This document shows positions 5,323 through 35,513 of a stretch of 40,517 bases of DNA, one piece after another. The notes beneath the pieces were generated by a model. It was not told where the DNA came from. It did not search any database and worked only from the letters and a program-made list of their open reading frames with translations. Origin of the DNA: Candidatus Latescibacterota bacterium (lineage in GTDB: Bacteria; Latescibacterota; UBA2968). Positions within the stretch are counted from its first letter, which is position 1, and the number at the start of each line of letters is the position of its first letter. The stretch is taken from positions 1-40,517 of the forward strand of contig JAYODI010000055.1 of the NCBI GenBank assembly GCA_038279365.1, in the 5' to 3' direction. The position numbers and the translations under genes are program-made.

Positions 5323-6522
<1,200 letters not shown>

Positions 6523-7933: not shown

Positions 7934-7985
7934 ACTGACCGCTGATTGCTGATTGCTGATTGCTGATTGCTGATTGCTGATTGCT
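7934..7985. repeat. Heptamer tandem repeat (GCTGATT)x6
   Basis: Six perfect copies at 7941-7982, just past the M50 gene stop. Confidence 0.95.
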
Positions 7986-9123: not shown

Positions 9124-9158
9124 TTGCCGTTTGCCGTTTGCCGTTTGCCGTCTGCCGT
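9124..9158. repeat. Heptamer tandem repeat (TTGCCGT)x4 plus CTGCCGT
   Basis: Read directly; abuts the stop at 9160. Confidence 0.92.
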
Positions 9159-9159
9159 C

Positions 9160-10047
9160 TTATCGAATCCCCAAAGCCACCCGATGCCCACTGCCCAACC
9201 CCGCAGAGATGGGCAAAAACGCATAATCTACCCGCCAATTTTTGCGCATCACACCCAATCCCAACGACCACGAACGCGTATCGTGCCCCGTCACAAACCC
9301 ACCGCGCAAAAACAGCCGCTGCTTCACCACATACTCCACACCCACATTGGCACCCAAATCGCCTCTATCAGGCATACGAAAGTCGGCACTCACCGTCAGC
9401 ACATCACGCACATAGGAAGCACCCAAACGAATTGTTCGTGGCAAAGGCGTGCGTTCCTGATCCAATTGCTCCATCCGCCCCAAATTGCGATACGTTGCCC
9501 CCACCATCAATCCAGGAATGCCCGGTTGATACATCAGCCCCAAATCCACGCCCACACCCCACGCACTTTCCGATGCAATATTTTCGTGCAAAGCCTTCAC
9601 CCCCACCCCCAAATAGGTGCGTTGTCCAAATCGCTGGGCATAAGACACACCCGCATTGAGATCATACACGCCAAATGTACCCAATGGCTCAAGCGTTGGA
9701 GCCGTACGTGCTTCAAAACCGCCTATCGAATATACCCCCAAACTCAAGGCCAACCCACGTTTTTGGTTGCCATAAGCCCATCCACCATAAGCCTGATTGA
9801 TGCCCTGAATCGATTTTTGATGCATCAAAACAAAATCTTTGCCCTGCAAAGCCGCCACACCTGCGGGGTTCCAATACGCCGCCGTCTGATCACCCACCAC
9901 TGCCGTGTAGGCCTCCCCCATAGCCGCTGCCCGTGCCCCAATGCCCTCACGCAACAACACAAATCCTGTTTGACGAGAAGCCACATCGGCCTCAACCCTG
10001 CCAGCACAACACCATACAATCACCACAAAAAACAAATACCGTTTCAA
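9160..10047 (-). CDS. PorV/PorQ-like (UPF0164-type) outer-membrane beta-barrel
   Basis: Signal peptide, GARAAAMGEA...A.YWNPAG motif, alternating beta-strands and C-terminal DYA...LG..H. GAGGAGG before TTG 10047. Confidence 0.8.
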   Translation of the reverse strand: MKRYLFFVVIVWCCAGRVEADVASRQTGFVLLREGIGARAAAMGEAYTAVVGDQTAAYWNPAGVAALQGKDFVLMHQKSIQGINQAYGGWAYGNQKRGLALSLGVYSIGGFEARTAPTLEPLGTFGVYDLNAGVSYAQRFGQRTYLGVGVKALHENIASESAWGVGVDLGLMYQPGIPGLMVGATYRNLGRMEQLDQERTPLPRTIRLGASYVRDVLTVSADFRMPDRGDLGANVGVEYVVKQRLFLRGGFVTGHDTRSWSLGLGVMRKNWRVDYAFLPISAGLGSGHRVALGIR

Positions 10048-10171: not shown

Positions 10172-10190
10172 CCTAAATATACAATGACAC

Positions 10191-10243
10191 ACGTGGTGAG
10201 TTGAGACCTATTGCAGCCACGTAAAACAACTGCTAAAAAGTCG
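10191..10243 (+). ncRNA. SAM-II (SAM_alpha-type) riboswitch aptamer
   Basis: ACGTGGTGAGTTGAGACCTATTGCAGCCACGTAAAACAACTGCTAAAAAGTC matches the recalled SAM-II pattern GTGGTGA.TTG...TTGCAGCCACGT.AAACAA..GCTAAA. Pairings: ACGTGG/CCACGT, AGTTG/CAACT, GAC/GTC. Confidence 0.82.
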
Positions 10244-10247
10244 CGAC

Positions 10248-10273
10248 CCCGGGCTTTTTGCTCGGGTTTTTTT
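10248..10273 (+). terminator. Intrinsic terminator in the tdh leader (probable expression platform)
   Basis: CCCGGGC-TTTTT-GCTCGGG followed by T7, 60 nt upstream of the tdh ATG. Confidence 0.8.
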
Positions 10274-10333: not shown

Positions 10334-11464
10334 ATGTCCACCACAATGAAAGCCATCCGCAAACCCAAGGCCGAACCCGGCTTGGTTGTTGAAGATGTGC
10401 CCATTCCATCACCCGGCCCACACGATGTGCTTGTACGGGTAGAAGCCACCAGCATATGTGGCACCGACCTGCACATCTACAAATGGGACGACTGGAGCCG
10501 CAACCGCATCAAACCACCCATTACCCTCGGCCATGAATTTGCAGGCACCGTGGTCGAAGTGGGCAAATTGGTCGAACAAGTCCACATTGGCGATTATGTC
10601 TCTGCCGAGAGCCACATCACCTGCGGACACTGCTTCCAATGTCGCACAGGCCAGGCCCACATGTGCCCCCAAACGCAAATTTTGGGCGTAGACCGCGATG
10701 GCGCTTTTGCCGAATATGTCGTCATTCCCGAAACTGTCGTCTGGCAAAACAACCGCACCAAACTGCCACCTGAAATTGCCACCTTACAAGAACCCTTTGG
10801 CAACGCCGTTTTTGCCTCTCACTCCCACGACCTTACTGGCCAAACCGTGGCCGTTTTTGGGTGTGGTCCCATTGGGCTTTTTAGCATTGGCATTGCCCGT
10901 GCTGCCGGTGCTGCCGCCGTTTTTGCCATTGACCCCGTCGAATTTCGCCTTGGGCTGGCTTGGGCTATGGGTGCTTCTCAAACCTTTGCCCCCAAAAAGG
11001 GCGAAAGCACCCTCGATTGGCTCTTAGAAGCCAACGAAGGTTTTGGGGTCGATATTGTGCTCGAAATGAGCGGTGCGCCTCCAGCCATTAACGATGCCTT
11101 TTCTGCCGTGCGAAACGGCGGTCGCATGACCCTATTTGGCATCCCTGCCGATCCTGTCGAAATCGACGTGGCCGAAAAAATGATCTTCAAAAACCTCACG
11201 GTTTGCGCCCTCAATGGCCGCCGCATTTGGGATACGTGGTACAAAACGCGCTGGTTGCTCGAAAGTGGTGTGGTTGATCTCAACCCACTCATCACCCGAA
11301 AAATGAAATTTGAGCAAATCGACGATGCCATTGCCTTGCTTAGCCAAGGGCAAGCCTGTAAAATCGTCTTGTGTCCAGACCACGCAAAAGAAGCACCACT
11401 TCCCCAAACAGACACACAGCGAGCCGTTGATGCCAATGTTACAGGGCAGATTGTCCATCCCTAA
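10334..11464 (+). CDS. tdh: L-threonine 3-dehydrogenase
   Basis: SICGTDLHIY.WD.W, GHEFAG, VSAESHITCGHC..C..G..H.C, EPFGNAV, G.GPIG and LEMSG motifs; AAGGAG SD. Confidence 0.9.
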   Translation: MSTTMKAIRKPKAEPGLVVEDVPIPSPGPHDVLVRVEATSICGTDLHIYKWDDWSRNRIKPPITLGHEFAGTVVEVGKLVEQVHIGDYVSAESHITCGHCFQCRTGQAHMCPQTQILGVDRDGAFAEYVVIPETVVWQNNRTKLPPEIATLQEPFGNAVFASHSHDLTGQTVAVFGCGPIGLFSIGIARAAGAAAVFAIDPVEFRLGLAWAMGASQTFAPKKGESTLDWLLEANEGFGVDIVLEMSGAPPAINDAFSAVRNGGRMTLFGIPADPVEIDVAEKMIFKNLTVCALNGRRIWDTWYKTRWLLESGVVDLNPLITRKMKFEQIDDAIALLSQGQACKIVLCPDHAKEAPLPQTDTQRAVDANVTGQIVHP

Positions 11465-16645: not shown

Positions 16646-17650
16646 CTAAAACCCAACTTCTCTCAAACCCTCATCTGCCGCCTGCTGAATCTTTAACACC
16701 GCACGCGACGATTGAATCACTTGCGCTGTATCTAAATCATCACTCGAAGAAGCGCCTTCAATATCTTTCAAAAAATAATCAAAGTAATTTGCCGTCACAT
16801 CGGGCAAATCGCAGTCGGTCATTTCACCCTTGGCATTTTTCAAAATAGACTTGGACGTGGTTGCCGTTTCCAAAACCCCCTCGCGCCCCCAAATGGTGAT
16901 TCGCCAATAATGAGGTGAGGCATACCCACCCTGATCGGGCATAAAATACGACACATCGCCCAACACCCCACACCCATTATTCATACTCAACATCATTTGC
17001 CCACCATCTTTAAAATGTGGGAACTCTGGCGCAAATGCATTCCAACATCTGGCCGCATGAATCGTTTCAAATTCCAAACCTGTCATCCAAGGCAACGCAT
17101 CAATCGCATGAATGCCAATATCTGTAATCGTTCCCCCATGTTTGCCCGGTTCAAAATACCAGCGTGCCCGCGAATCCAAGTTCAGGGGATGTTGTCCACC
17201 AAAAGAAATGGCATGCACCTCACCAATCATACCTGCACGAATAAAATTGCGCAATCCGTTCATTTGCCGAGAACCACGCATCGTAAACATACACCCAACC
17301 TTCAATTTTTTTTCTTTGGCCAACCGTTCAATCTCATCAATCTCATCCAAATCCGTACACAATGGTTTATCCGATATCACATGTTTGCCCGCCTTCAATG
17401 CCGCAATCATCACCGACCCACGGTTGGCAAAATAATCACCCGTCGCAATCACGTCGCAATCGGCCTGAGCAATCAAATCATCAGCCGAGTCATGGGTGAT
17501 CTGCACACCTTTACTTATTGCCTCTTTTCGCGTCTCCTCATGCATTTCACAAGCCGCCACAACGTCAACCCCAGCAGTCTCATTCACTTTGTTAAAAAGG
17601 CTATAAATATGCCCATGTCGAAATCCAACAAATCCAAATCGAATTGCCAT
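16646..17650 (-). CDS. Gfo/Idh/MocA family oxidoreductase
   Basis: GFRHGH, GKHVISDKP and GG.I.DIGIH.ID motifs; AAAGGA SD before ATG 17650. Confidence 0.88.
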   Translation of the reverse strand: MAIRFGFVGFRHGHIYSLFNKVNETAGVDVVAACEMHEETRKEAISKGVQITHDSADDLIAQADCDVIATGDYFANRGSVMIAALKAGKHVISDKPLCTDLDEIDEIERLAKEKKLKVGCMFTMRGSRQMNGLRNFIRAGMIGEVHAISFGGQHPLNLDSRARWYFEPGKHGGTITDIGIHAIDALPWMTGLEFETIHAARCWNAFAPEFPHFKDGGQMMLSMNNGCGVLGDVSYFMPDQGGYASPHYWRITIWGREGVLETATTSKSILKNAKGEMTDCDLPDVTANYFDYFLKDIEGASSSDDLDTAQVIQSSRAVLKIQQAADEGLREVGF

Positions 17651-17834
17651 ATCAAATCCTTTCCCAAACCAATAGATATACCTTATCTCAGAAACACAAA
17701 GCATGATAACATCTGTATACAAATTTGCAACCGTGTGATACACTGCCACAGAAGCAAAAGTTTGATAAATTAGAAAAATTTGACAAAACAAAATCCCGCC
17801 ATTAAAAAAATTTCATATTTTTCCATTTACACCC

Positions 17835-17864
17835 TTGACATATTTTTCAAAATTCGGGTATATT
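17835..17864 (+). promoter_or_regulatory. Near-consensus sigma70-type promoter
   Basis: TTGACA-18 bp-TATATT with an AT-rich upstream tract. Confidence 0.7.
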
Positions 17865-17870
17865 TTGTGT

Positions 17871-18217
17871 GTAAGGAAAACAATATGATTTGGCGACAGT
17901 CCGCTCGAAATGGTTTTTGTCTGCCATTTGAAAATGGGTTTTCACCATCATTGCCGAACCGCTCCAGACTGAGTGCCTCGGCTCGGAAAGCAATTTCCAG
18001 AGAGTCCATTTAAAACAGGTAGGCACATCGCGCCACACTCACCAAACCGCGAGCGTGTGTAACAGGTCGCAAACCCTTAAACAGGAGGTTCCGTGCCACC
18101 TATCCAATATCTGCGATCGGGTTCTCGAGTCTCCACCCCGGTCGTCTAAAATAGGAGATCGCATGAGTTGTCATACATAACGGTCGCAGCCATTTCTCGC
18201 TGCGACCGTCTTTTTTT
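17871..18217 (+). ncRNA. Candidate structured RNA / micro-ORF transcript of unknown family
   Basis: Bounded by a promoter and a terminator; several nested helices; no ORF over 42 aa downstream of the promoter. Confidence 0.55.
18180..18217 (+). terminator. Intrinsic terminator
   Basis: ACGGTCGCAGC-8 nt-GCTGCGACCGT-C-T7. Confidence 0.85.
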
Positions 18218-18285
18218 ATATTAAAAAAAGGCCACAATCATAATCGATCGTGACCTTTCATTCTCAGCGTGAATAAATCTTAATT

Positions 18286-19317
18286 TTAAACCTGCACAGG
18301 CATATCAATACGGTCTCTTACCACTTGCGCATATTCCCCCGCAGCCTTAATCGCTTCTACCATCCCATGCGCATCTGCGATTCCTTTTCCTGCAATATCA
18401 AACGCGGTTCCATGATCAACAGAAGTACGCAAAAATTTTAATCCCATTGTAAAACTCACCGTACCGTGAAAATCCACAGTCTTGGTTGCGATATGTCCTT
18501 GATCATGATACAAACTCAGCACCCCATCATAACGCCCTTCAAGTGCCTGATGAAAAACAGAGTCTGCAGGCACTGGCCCACGTACCTTTAAGCCCAATTT
18601 CTGTGCTTTGGCAACAGCTGGCTGAATCACTTCCATTTCTTCACGCCCAAACAAACCCTGCTCACCGCCATGTGGGTTTAATGCCGCCACCGCCAAAAGC
18701 GGGTCATCAGCTCCCAACTGACGCAAATATAAATCACACAAGGGCAAGTATTCCAAAATGCCTTCTTGTGTAATGGCATCGGCAATTTCGCGAAATGAAA
18801 GATGGCGCGTTAAAAAGAAAACCTTCATCTTGCGAACCACAAACAAAGTCATGGGCAATCGGTGTGCCGAACGTGCATTTAAAACAGACGTATGATCAAT
18901 ATGTGGCACTTTGGCCGCTTGCAAAGATTCTTTGTTTAACGGTGCCGTAGCCAACCCCACCACATCCCCCGAGAGTGCATCGTCAATGGCGCGGTTCAAA
19001 TAACCATAGCCCGCACGTCCCCCATCTGCCGATATCTCACCATAAGCAATCGACCCGTCCAAAATCCCACAATCCACAAAATCCACACATCCTTTTTCAA
19101 ATCGCCCGTCCGTTGGATTTTCCACGGCATTAAGTTCCAGGTCCACACCCAACATCTCCAACGTCTGTTCCAAAATGGCCCGATCTGCATACACAACCGG
19201 TCGAATAGATGCATGCGTCGCATCATTTTGCAATGCCTTAATGACAATCTCTGGTCCAATGCCTGCCGGGTCACCCACCGTCAACCCAATAATCGGACGT
19301 TCCTTTTTATCGCTCAA
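18286..19317 (-). CDS. pdxA: 4-hydroxythreonine-4-phosphate dehydrogenase (PdxA/PdxA2 family)
   Basis: GDPAGIGPE, TAPLNKE, LNPHGGE.G.FG.EE, GPVPADSVF, YHDQGH and RTSVDHGTAFDIAG motifs; GGAGG before TTG 19317. Confidence 0.93.
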   Translation of the reverse strand: MSDKKERPIIGLTVGDPAGIGPEIVIKALQNDATHASIRPVVYADRAILEQTLEMLGVDLELNAVENPTDGRFEKGCVDFVDCGILDGSIAYGEISADGGRAGYGYLNRAIDDALSGDVVGLATAPLNKESLQAAKVPHIDHTSVLNARSAHRLPMTLFVVRKMKVFFLTRHLSFREIADAITQEGILEYLPLCDLYLRQLGADDPLLAVAALNPHGGEQGLFGREEMEVIQPAVAKAQKLGLKVRGPVPADSVFHQALEGRYDGVLSLYHDQGHIATKTVDFHGTVSFTMGLKFLRTSVDHGTAFDIAGKGIADAHGMVEAIKAAGEYAQVVRDRIDMPVQV

Positions 19318-19364
19318 ACGACCCACCTCCATAAATGCAATTGAAAAAATTCACAAGCCACTTT

Positions 19365-19390
19365 TGACCTGCGACCTGTGACCTGTGACC
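19365..19390. repeat. Heptamer tandem repeat (YGACCTG) x3.7
   Basis: TGACCTG-CGACCTG-TGACCTG-TGACC, just past the esterase stop. Confidence 0.8.
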
Positions 19391-19393
19391 GAT

Positions 19394-20233
19394 TTACCGC
19401 ACATCCCGCCACAACCACCGCAACGTATCTGGCAAAATGGTTCCCCCATGCAAACCACTGTGTTTGCCCTCACCTGCAACAAACTTATAATCGTAATCCA
19501 TCAACTCCAAAGAACTGTCCATTTGCAAATTGCTCAACCACCAATCGCCGTGCTCTTTATTCAAATCGTTGCAACCATCTTGCAAAAACACCCGAATCGG
19601 TTTGCGCTCACTCTTGCGAATCACAAATGGATACACATGCCCGCCCCGAATATTGACAAAACTACCAATATGGCTCACCACCTTGCGAAACGCATCGGGT
19701 CGCTCCCACGCCACCGTAAACGCACAAATACCGCCCGAACTGCTGCCACAAATGGCACGCCGTTCAGGATCGTCCGTCAAATTGTGTGTCTTGCCCACTT
19801 CGGGCAAAATCTCTTCCAACAAAAACCGCGCATATTGATCACTCAAGGTATCATATTCAAAACTGCGATTGTTTTTGGGCCCACTTTCGGGCAATGTATC
19901 CCCCCGATGCCCAGGGTTAATCATAATGGCCACAGTGACGGGCATGTCACCCCGGTGGATCAAATTGTCAAACACAATAGGCACACGAAAATGCCCCGTA
20001 TCACTCACACAGCCACCACCGTCTTGAAACACCATCACACACGCAGGTTTTGAAGCATCGTATTGTGCAGGGGTATATACCCAATATTCGCGAACAGTAG
20101 CTTCAAAAATTTGGCTGTGCCATACATGTTGGGTCACCTGACCTTGTGGCACACCTGCCTGTCGAAACGAATCGGGCCCGTGTGTAAACAATGCGCTGTC
20201 ATCGCGATCTTCATCACGCCGTCTTTTAGACAC
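19394..20233 (-). CDS. Alpha/beta hydrolase, Fes-like putative esterase
   Basis: VY.PAQY, VFQDG, NRSFEYD and the G-S-S-S-G-G nucleophile elbow. Confidence 0.85.
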   Translation of the reverse strand: MSKRRRDEDRDDSALFTHGPDSFRQAGVPQGQVTQHVWHSQIFEATVREYWVYTPAQYDASKPACVMVFQDGGGCVSDTGHFRVPIVFDNLIHRGDMPVTVAIMINPGHRGDTLPESGPKNNRSFEYDTLSDQYARFLLEEILPEVGKTHNLTDDPERRAICGSSSGGICAFTVAWERPDAFRKVVSHIGSFVNIRGGHVYPFVIRKSERKPIRVFLQDGCNDLNKEHGDWWLSNLQMDSSLELMDYDYKFVAGEGKHSGLHGGTILPDTLRWLWRDVR

Positions 20234-29316: not shown

Positions 29317-29348
29317 CCGTTTGCCGTTTGCCATCTGCCTTTTGCTTT
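29317..29348. repeat. Degenerate heptamer array after the epimerase stop
   Basis: Minus strand AAAAGGC-AGATGGC-AAACGGC-AAACGG; same family as 9124-9158. Confidence 0.6.
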
Positions 29349-35448: not shown

Positions 35449-35513
35449 GTCGCAAGTCTCAGGTCGGCAAGTCAAAAACACCTGCTGACCTGTGACCTGT
35501 GACCTACTGACCT
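35449..35513 (+). repeat. Heptamer-repeat hairpin between the YbjN-like gene and pspA
   Basis: GTCGCAA-GTCTCAG-GTCGGCAA-GTCA opposes TGACCTG-TGACCTG-TGACCTAC-TGACCT. Confidence 0.75.

Follow-up and report, generated by a model that had tools for sequence, protein, structure and literature searches.

Most bacterial RNAs of known function whose size and complexity are similar to those of the RNA described here work with protein partners, including the 6S, CsrB, CrcZ, OLE and signal recognition particle (SRP) RNAs. Families of the CsrB/Rsm type carry many GGA motifs, while OLE, ROOL and GOLLD are larger than the RNA considered here. Analysis of the 40,517-nucleotide (nt) contig JAYODI010000055.1 of assembly GCA_038279365.1 (hereafter the window, read on the forward strand), deposited under Candidatus Latescibacterota, a group which to our knowledge is known solely from metagenome-assembled genomes (MAGs), revealed what is very probably a real non-coding RNA gene of a Latescibacterota-like bacterium, predicted to be transcribed independently as an RNA of about 347 nt (approximately positions 17871 to 18217, plus strand) and belonging to no described family. 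The RNA is undescribed in the sense that neither Rfam 15 nor the searched literature contains it, and two copies of it are known, one in the window and one in a related MAG.

In the proposed fold, a helix designated P1 would close a core of 283 nt around two domains, a 5' domain of 154 nt and a 3' domain of 111 nt. RNAs of the CsrB/RsmZ type resemble this locus in being stand-alone genes of a few hundred nt with their own promoter and intrinsic terminator and in having repeated, conserved GGA-containing motifs similar to Shine-Dalgarno (SD) sequences, here ACAGGAGGU and AUAGGAGAU; however, the RNA described here has three conserved GGA triplets, its motifs are not clearly located in hairpin loops, and its fold is a closed one of two domains that includes a three-way junction. 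The raiA, OLE, ROOL, GOLLD and HEARO RNAs, large structured bacterial RNAs in Rfam with obscure or newly established functions, share with it a size that is large for a bacterial non-coding RNA, a conserved fold of many helices in which a junction and a GNRA loop are present and a pseudoknot is possible, and a lineage-restricted occurrence, but no sequence or structure match to them was found, no associated protein gene adjoins the RNA here, and just two copies of it are known. Like 6S RNA, the locus has the appearance of a stand-alone gene for an abundant RNA, in that its promoter is near consensus, a helical rod is predicted and the ends are paired. The rod that closes the 5' and 3' ends of 6S RNA around a large central bubble is, however, not found here, where two domains and a three-way junction are predicted instead, a second domain of 111 nt lies between helices P2 and P1, and no single central bubble is present. 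Riboswitch-derived RNAs that work in trans or govern antisense RNAs, such as Listeria SreA and SreB and the B12-controlled Rli55/EutX RNAs, have, as here, an aptamer-like closed fold directly before a terminator, and here too no gene follows in the same direction, the unit converging on another operon; unlike those RNAs, this one matches no known aptamer and has no evident antiterminator alternative.

Investigation of related genomes, using the adjacent oxidoreductase as the query of a genome scan, yielded seven loci (L001 to L007), two of which, L001 and L002, are on syntenic Candidatus Latescibacterota MAG contigs with oxidoreductases of 85 and 86% amino-acid identity, respectively, while L003 to L007 are not syntenic at the RNA locus. 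The whole intergenic unit was aligned to L002 by nhmmer (E = 2.6e-55), revealing a full-length copy of the RNA preceded by the promoter TTGACG-18-TATATT (10/12 consensus positions), which has the same spacer and an equivalent position with respect to the RNA core, and followed by a terminator kept in the same arrangement, for which 12 pairs were counted. In the two flanking genes, the window and L002 agree at 28.1% (n = 128) and 29.1% (n = 141) of four-fold degenerate sites, a level that corresponds to saturation, and at 47.5 and 43.8% of third codon positions, whereas in the RNA core 201 of the 289 alignment columns (approximately 70%) are identical. This level of identity beside saturated synonymous sites indicates strong selection on the RNA. 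Differences were found in 16 of the 124 paired and 72 of the 165 unpaired columns, and the two copies are separated by four indels, each of a single base.

Coding does not account for this conservation. The mismatches in a gap-free block of 147 columns at the 3' side are distributed over the three phases as 12/15/13 (p = 0.84), showing no codon periodicity. The longest open reading frame (ORF) of the RNA region has 77 amino acids (aa), no ORF of at least 25 aa is common to the window and L002 copies, and the ATG at 17885 of a 42-aa ORF located behind AAGGAA is not kept in L002, in agreement with the first-pass annotation, made from the window sequence, which had seen no sizeable gene in the unit. 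None of seven candidate ORFs was detected in a collection of 15 billion proteins, Pfam detected nothing in the two short ORFs tested, and no conserved ORF with substitutions biased toward third positions was found.

Regarding structure, for which the comparison rests on the window and L002 copies, the RNAalifold consensus has an energy of -85.15 kcal/mol compared with -42.8 +/- 5.2 for 200 identity-keeping column shuffles (z = -8.2), none of which was as low, and with -57.1 for the reverse complement. Independent folds of the single sequences have 32 pairs in common (out of 84 and 85) and none on the reverse strand, while the shuffled alignments have 3.3 +/- 4.5 common pairs with a maximum of 21, none of the 200 shuffles reaching 32. 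A curated model comprises 62 pairs in ten helices, in which all 124 of 124 cells pair and none is broken; 49 of these pairs are invariant and 13 are variable, ten by one-sided and three by two-sided changes. The two-sided changes (G-C to A-U at 17903/18054, G-C to A-U at 17913/18047 and U-A to C-G at 17916/18044) are all located within helices P2 and P2b, and when the partners were slid by one to three columns pairing fell to 36 to 49% with no two-sided change. The 5' domain adopts the same topology in the window and L002 copies when folded separately. The model contains 11 G.U pairs in the window copy and nine in L002, which would be A.C mismatches on the opposite strand and thus fit the plus orientation. 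The RNA therefore has a conserved, strand-specific, non-coding core fold. The proposal of the first-pass annotation that the unit encodes a structured RNA of an unrecognised class is upheld by the conservation of the fold in L002 together with the absence of a match at Rfam gathering scores, and the pair-preserving changes that had been sought in a homologue are present, in the curated model, as the 13 variable and unbroken pairs.

In this model, the 5' arm of P1 (UGGCGAC, 17891-17897) pairs with its 3' arm (GUUGUCA, 18167-18173) through seven pairs that are invariant in both copies, and the terminator begins 6 nt beyond; a 5-bp alternative partner of the 5' arm, GUCGC at 18067-18071, is likewise invariant. 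The 5' domain (17902-18055) is predicted to form a rod, P2-P2b-P2c-P3, which ends in a three-way junction. The rod consists of P2 (17902-17907/18050-18055), P2b (17911-17916/18044-18049), P2c (17918-17922/18021-18025) and P3 (17936-17943/18000-18007), the last of which carries three changes from G.U to Watson-Crick pairs, and between P2c and P3 there is an A/U-rich stretch that is paired differently in the two species. The junction carries an arm of P3a (17953-17957/17978-17982) and P3b (17960-17964/17971-17975), the latter kept in L002 via a register shift, and helix P3c (17985-17989/17994-17998), in which all 14 nt of GGAAA-GCAA-UUUCC are invariant, with the GCAA loop at 17990-17993.

The 3' domain (18056-18166) contains the invariant sequence GUCGCAA (18067-18073), the hairpins P6 and P7 and a candidate pseudoknot. 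The motif A-Y-AGGAG-R-U occurs twice in the RNA and is invariant in both places. In the motif ACAGGAGGUU at 18081-18090, GGAGGU would pair with GCCACC in the invariant hairpin P6 (18084-18089/18095-18100), and the motif AUAGGAGAU is located at 18151-18159. Hairpin P7 (18113-18121/18137-18145) has nine pairs, with two one-sided preserving changes, and a loop of 15 nt in which UCUCCA is invariant and predicted to be unpaired in the nested folds of the two copies (0.86 and 0.93). The loop sequence GUCUCC (18129-18134) probably forms a pseudoknot of six pairs with GGAGAU (18154-18159), which is part of AUAGGAGAU, with one one-sided change (G.U to A-U); the predicted unpaired state of the P7 loop may fit either this tertiary pairing or an exposed functional site.

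The helices named by the first-pass annotation can all form in the window (6/6, 7/7, 5/5, 5/5, 5/5, 9/9, 9/9, and 7/7 pairs), but their conservation in L002 is partial. GCCGA/UCGGC (5/5), GGAAA/UUUCC (5/5) and GCGAUCGGG/CCCGGUCGU (9/9) are fully kept, while only the cores are kept of AAAUGGG/UCCAUUU (5/7), for which the conserved helix is GGGUUUUC/GARARYCC, and of AGGU-AGGCAC/GUGCC-ACCU (4/9). AAAUGG/CCAUUU retains three of its six pairs and competes with the long-range helix P2b, which has two compensatory changes. In L002, a shifted hairpin, GCUU/AAGC, takes the place of CGCUC/GAGUG, and the alternative UGCGAUC/GAUCGCA, with three of seven pairs in L002, was rejected. The long-range helices P1, P2, P2b, and P2c, which are the best supported, had been overlooked.

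Regarding known RNA families, no family was detected at the RNA locus by Rfam 15 at gathering thresholds, the single match in the window being SAM_alpha at 10183-10256. At E <= 10, seven weak matches were found in the region 17700-18300, the best of which reached 21.9 bits (threshold 43) and is located, like most of the others, on the terminators; no riboswitch, ribozyme or sponge family was among the weak matches of the window or the L002 copy. In line with the first-pass annotation, which had noted the lack of hallmarks of transfer-messenger RNA (tmRNA), RNase P and SRP RNA, the models of tmRNA (permuted forms included), RNase P (types A and B), SRP (small and large) and also 6S RNA were absent at E <= 10 in the window and L002 copies, and ARAGORN detected no transfer RNA or tmRNA gene in the whole window. 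Rfam matches over L001 to L007 numbered zero. A blastn search in distant mode with positions 17800-18260 against plasmids and phages gave no match, and the sole blastn match of the 8-kb neighbourhood to plasmids was a conserved 137-nt segment of pdxA. When both copies were used to build a covariance model (R1), a search with it over 102,551 bases, comprising the window and L001 to L007, recovered just these two copies, with 335 and 332 bits, everything else scoring at most 8.3 bits; thus there are no paralogues in these 102,551 bases, and a repeat search of the window similarly revealed no second copy of the RNA. No description of non-coding RNAs for Latescibacterota was found in the full-text searches made.

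The signals that enclose the unit are those named by the first-pass annotation, and they are conserved in L002. The promoter-like site on the plus strand (17835-17864) consists of TTGACA (17835-17840), an 18-nt spacer and TATATT (17859-17864), agreeing with the sigma-70 consensus at 11/12 positions, and is the sole match of at least 11/12 in the window. The putative intrinsic terminator (18180-18217) has an 11-bp stem at 18180-18209 (8 G-C pairs), with an 8-nt loop, followed by CTTTTTTT. The 5' tail of the predicted transcript (17871-17890) is poorly conserved, and the AAGGAA and the ATG that belong to the 42-aa ORF, itself not conserved, are located there. A promoter match of 11/12 may arise by chance, since first-order Markov sequences contain on average 0.5 such sites per 40.5 kb, with one or more present in 41 of 100 sequences, and at a looser threshold four sites were found in the window compared with 3.7 expected. 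The folding energy of the single sequence is likewise not strand-specific, with z = -3.3 on the plus and -3.6 on the minus strand. The window sequence by itself is thus no better than chance, and it is the comparative data that exceed chance.

As had also been noted, both neighbouring genes are on the minus strand. On the left is a GFO/IDH/MocA oxidoreductase gene (16646-17650; likely start ATG at 17650, ORF end at 16646), located upstream of a gene encoding a DUF4962/heparinase II/III-like protein, and on the right a PdxA-family gene (18286-19332), located downstream of an esterase gene, so that the RNA gene sits between two sugar-metabolism operons. The 635-nt gap holding it is, with small genes elsewhere accounted for, the largest non-coding gap in the window. 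Beyond its terminator, the plus strand first shows the complement of the terminator (18226-18259, minus strand) that serves the convergent PdxA-family operon and stands back to back with that of the RNA, and then the minus-strand PdxA-family gene itself. The terminator of the PdxA operon is found in L002 at 5423-5450 and in L001 at about 5838-5862, with stems that differ in all three genomes while the pairing is kept. No gene follows on the plus strand, and the RNA thus does not lie in the 5' untranslated region of a gene that it could control as a cis-acting riboswitch or leader.

The second syntenic relative, L001, does not have the RNA. Only the last 85 nt (query 376-460) were aligned by nhmmer (E = 7.8e-07); the terminator is kept, with 12 pairs, while the promoter is absent, and the terminator loops differ among the copies. 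The stretch missing in L001, about 427 nt corresponding to 17747-18173 of the window (columns 107-535 of the three-way alignment), includes, besides A/T-rich upstream DNA and the promoter, the RNA body in its entirety through the 3' arm of P1, and is bounded by the short repeat TGCCA/TGTCA. Comparison of L001 5832-6000 with this stretch shows a clean loss, with the terminator and both neighbouring operons kept. The location of the right-hand repeat inside helix P1 and the orphan terminator left behind point to a deletion in the L001 lineage, and on the same grounds the insertion of a mobile element is a less likely cause of the difference. The RNA gene is therefore accessory, lost by one relative, and the neighbouring operons evidently do without it in that lineage.

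Upstream of the RNA gene, the block TGCAACCGTGTGATACACTGCC (17726-17747), which contains the inverted repeat GTGT-GAT-ACAC, overlaps the -35 element of a putative minus-strand promoter (17730-17703). It has one mismatch in L002 and is partly kept in L001, in which the deletion begins right after it, and it is probably an operator of the operon of the oxidoreductase and heparinase-like genes.

Regarding function, the explanation favoured here, taken as a whole, combines the RNA gene with a protein-binding action and is held with moderate confidence, while the particular role of a trans-acting RNA that binds protein as a decoy or scaffold is put forward tentatively. A protein-binding role is suggested by the large, closed, multi-domain core, by the invariant blocks outside helices or partly paired, and by the two A-Y-AGGAG-R-U motifs, which appear to resemble ribosome-binding sites (RBSs) or CsrA-type sites. 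The rod would act as a platform and confer stability, while the invariant blocks of the 3' domain would make up the active surface, and two of these blocks, the RBS-like motifs ACAGGAGGU and AUAGGAGAU, might titrate a factor that recognises GGA or SD-like sequences, for instance a CsrA-type regulator. Such an RNA would act in trans through a protein partner, and it may have a connection with the polysaccharide and sugar-acid genes nearby.

A number of observations weigh against this explanation or against parts of it. Independent transcription is predicted from the conserved promoter and terminator signals, and the loss in L001 shows that the RNA gene is dispensable. Regarding the fold, no statistical test of covariation is possible because there are just two copies, the curated model was chosen with knowledge of both sequences, and its shuffle control is weak, the observed values being reached by 57 of 500 shuffles. 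Helices P1, P3c and P6 are invariant and are thus neither supported nor refuted by variation. Projection of the minimum free energy structure of the window onto L002 breaks 24 of the 44 changed pairs, fewer than the 37 expected (P = 0.002), yet enough to show that much of any single-sequence fold is not conserved, and the five compensatory pairs of the RNAalifold consensus compare with a shuffle mean of 6.0, at least five being found in 147 of 200 shuffles. Regarding the decoy mechanism, the conserved GGA triplets number just three, both AGGAG motifs can pair internally, in P6 and in the pseudoknot, with unpaired probabilities of 0.21 to 0.58, CsrB, CsrC and RsmX/Y/Z have no Rfam match at E <= 10, and no gene for a CsrA-type or other RNA-binding partner was found among the scanned ORFs of the window.

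Among the alternatives, a base-pairing small RNA (sRNA), the P7 loop of which (UCUCCA) would act as an anti-SD-like sequence to repress translation at the RBSs of its targets, possibly including the divergent operon of the oxidoreductase and heparinase-like genes, is the strongest but still considered unlikely. Genes for sRNAs that are divergent from their regulons are common, and C/U-rich loops typically serve as seeds in several phyla; consistent with this, the RNA gene is divergent from a carbohydrate-active operon and its loop is both invariant and predicted to be unpaired in the two copies. However, the closed, conserved two-domain fold of 283 nt exceeds the needs of an sRNA that bears a seed, and the P7 loop complements the GGAGAU of the RNA itself, so that its conservation may be structural. 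Target searches were uninformative: RNAduplex against 31 translation-start regions yielded artefactual duplexes that contained very long loops, the best energy (-73.1) being reached by 0.6% of shuffles, and no target emerged from an exact reverse-complement scan of nine conserved blocks against the window and the seven loci, in which 7- to 8-mers matched many places, as the strand composition skew predicts, and 9- to 10-mers matched the RNA alone. Rather less probable is a stand-alone sensor or ribonucleoprotein that would control polysaccharide or sugar-acid use in trans, in which the core of three-way junction and pseudoknot would bind a specific ligand or protein or act as a catalyst, and which would be the founding member of a new class of bacterial RNAs with complex folds, from an uncultured phylum. 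A ligand-sensing or catalytic RNA acting on its own, either riboswitch-like in trans or resembling the large ornate RNAs, is doubtful. The three-way junction, the invariant GNRA loop, the candidate pseudoknot, the invariant blocks outside or partly in helices and the closing of the fold by P1 directly ahead of the terminator would all suit it, while on the other side there is nothing to regulate in cis on the plus strand, no riboswitch or ribozyme of Rfam matches, the comparative support is limited to P7 and the 5' domain, and L001 dispenses with the gene.

The possibility that the transcript is the messenger RNA of a small protein, or a dual-function RNA, concerns two short frames and is very unlikely. 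An 18-codon frame behind AGGAGG extends from GTG at 18093 to TAA at 18149 and encodes VPPIQYLRSGSRVSTPVV in the window and VPPIESSRSGYQISIPIV in L002 (first codon GTG), and a 5-codon frame behind AGGAGA extends from ATG at 18163 to TAA at 18180, encoding MSCHT* and MCCHI*, respectively; in both frames the SD-like motif, start, length and stop position are kept in L002. The 18-codon frame, however, has 4/6/3 mismatches by codon position, and its third positions are about 84% identical (16/19), compared with 44 to 48% in the neighbouring genes. The frames also overlie helix P7 and the 3' arm of P1, which would explain their conservation, and neither the lack of periodicity in the gap-free 3' block nor the loss of the 42-aa ORF start in L002 points to coding, so that translation of the two frames appears unlikely. 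A cis-acting element whose RNA product has no function, be it a transcriptional insulator, a source of antisense RNA against the PdxA-family operon or a decaying remnant, would be in keeping with the convergence of the unit on that operon, the back-to-back terminators and the retention of the terminator in L001, which is without the RNA body. Nevertheless, a remnant or mere promoter would not hold 70% identity and a fold beside saturated synonymous sites, and the strong terminator speaks against regular read-through, making this explanation highly improbable. The protein-binding RNA thus remains the reading favoured here.

Other features of the window were also observed. The SAM_alpha match is on the plus strand, covers the full length of the model with 37.6 bits against a threshold of 36, and is located 78 nt upstream of a gene for a zinc-type alcohol dehydrogenase (10334-11464). 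This family of SAM riboswitch aptamers has been described for Alphaproteobacteria, and both Latescibacterota relatives and the downstream gene are odd for it; the match may be a false positive close to the threshold or a family member outside the usual range. It had suggested an alphaproteobacterial origin of the window, a reading rejected in favour of Latescibacterota as the most likely source once the two syntenic relatives proved to be MAGs of that phylum. At the window edge, an 82-nt unit is repeated in tandem (positions 1-82 and 97-178; 96% identity, spacing of 96 nt), and its second copy enters the first bases of the long ORF with a TTG start of the minus-strand ROK-family gene. This gene was placed at 217-1227, so that its true start may lie further in. 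Heptanucleotide tandem repeats were detected at 7942-7984, 9127-9169, 29317-29345, 19348-19398 and 35469-35512, mostly intergenic and near gene ends, although the run at 9127-9169 is within long predicted ORFs and that at 19348-19398 just touches the end of an ORF. Their units are CTGATTG, CCGTTTG/CCGTCTG and GACCTGT/GACCTGC, the GACCTGT type being found at two distant places.

Thus, an RNA under strong selection is located beside heparinase-like, oxidoreductase, PdxA-family and esterase genes and represents a candidate new RNA family, although genes of its general type, those for stand-alone non-coding RNAs of bacteria, are familiar. If it is confined to a small lineage, it would be one more lineage-specific regulatory RNA, and if more copies exist in metagenomes, it would constitute a new RNA family and a tractable target for structure probing and partner discovery.

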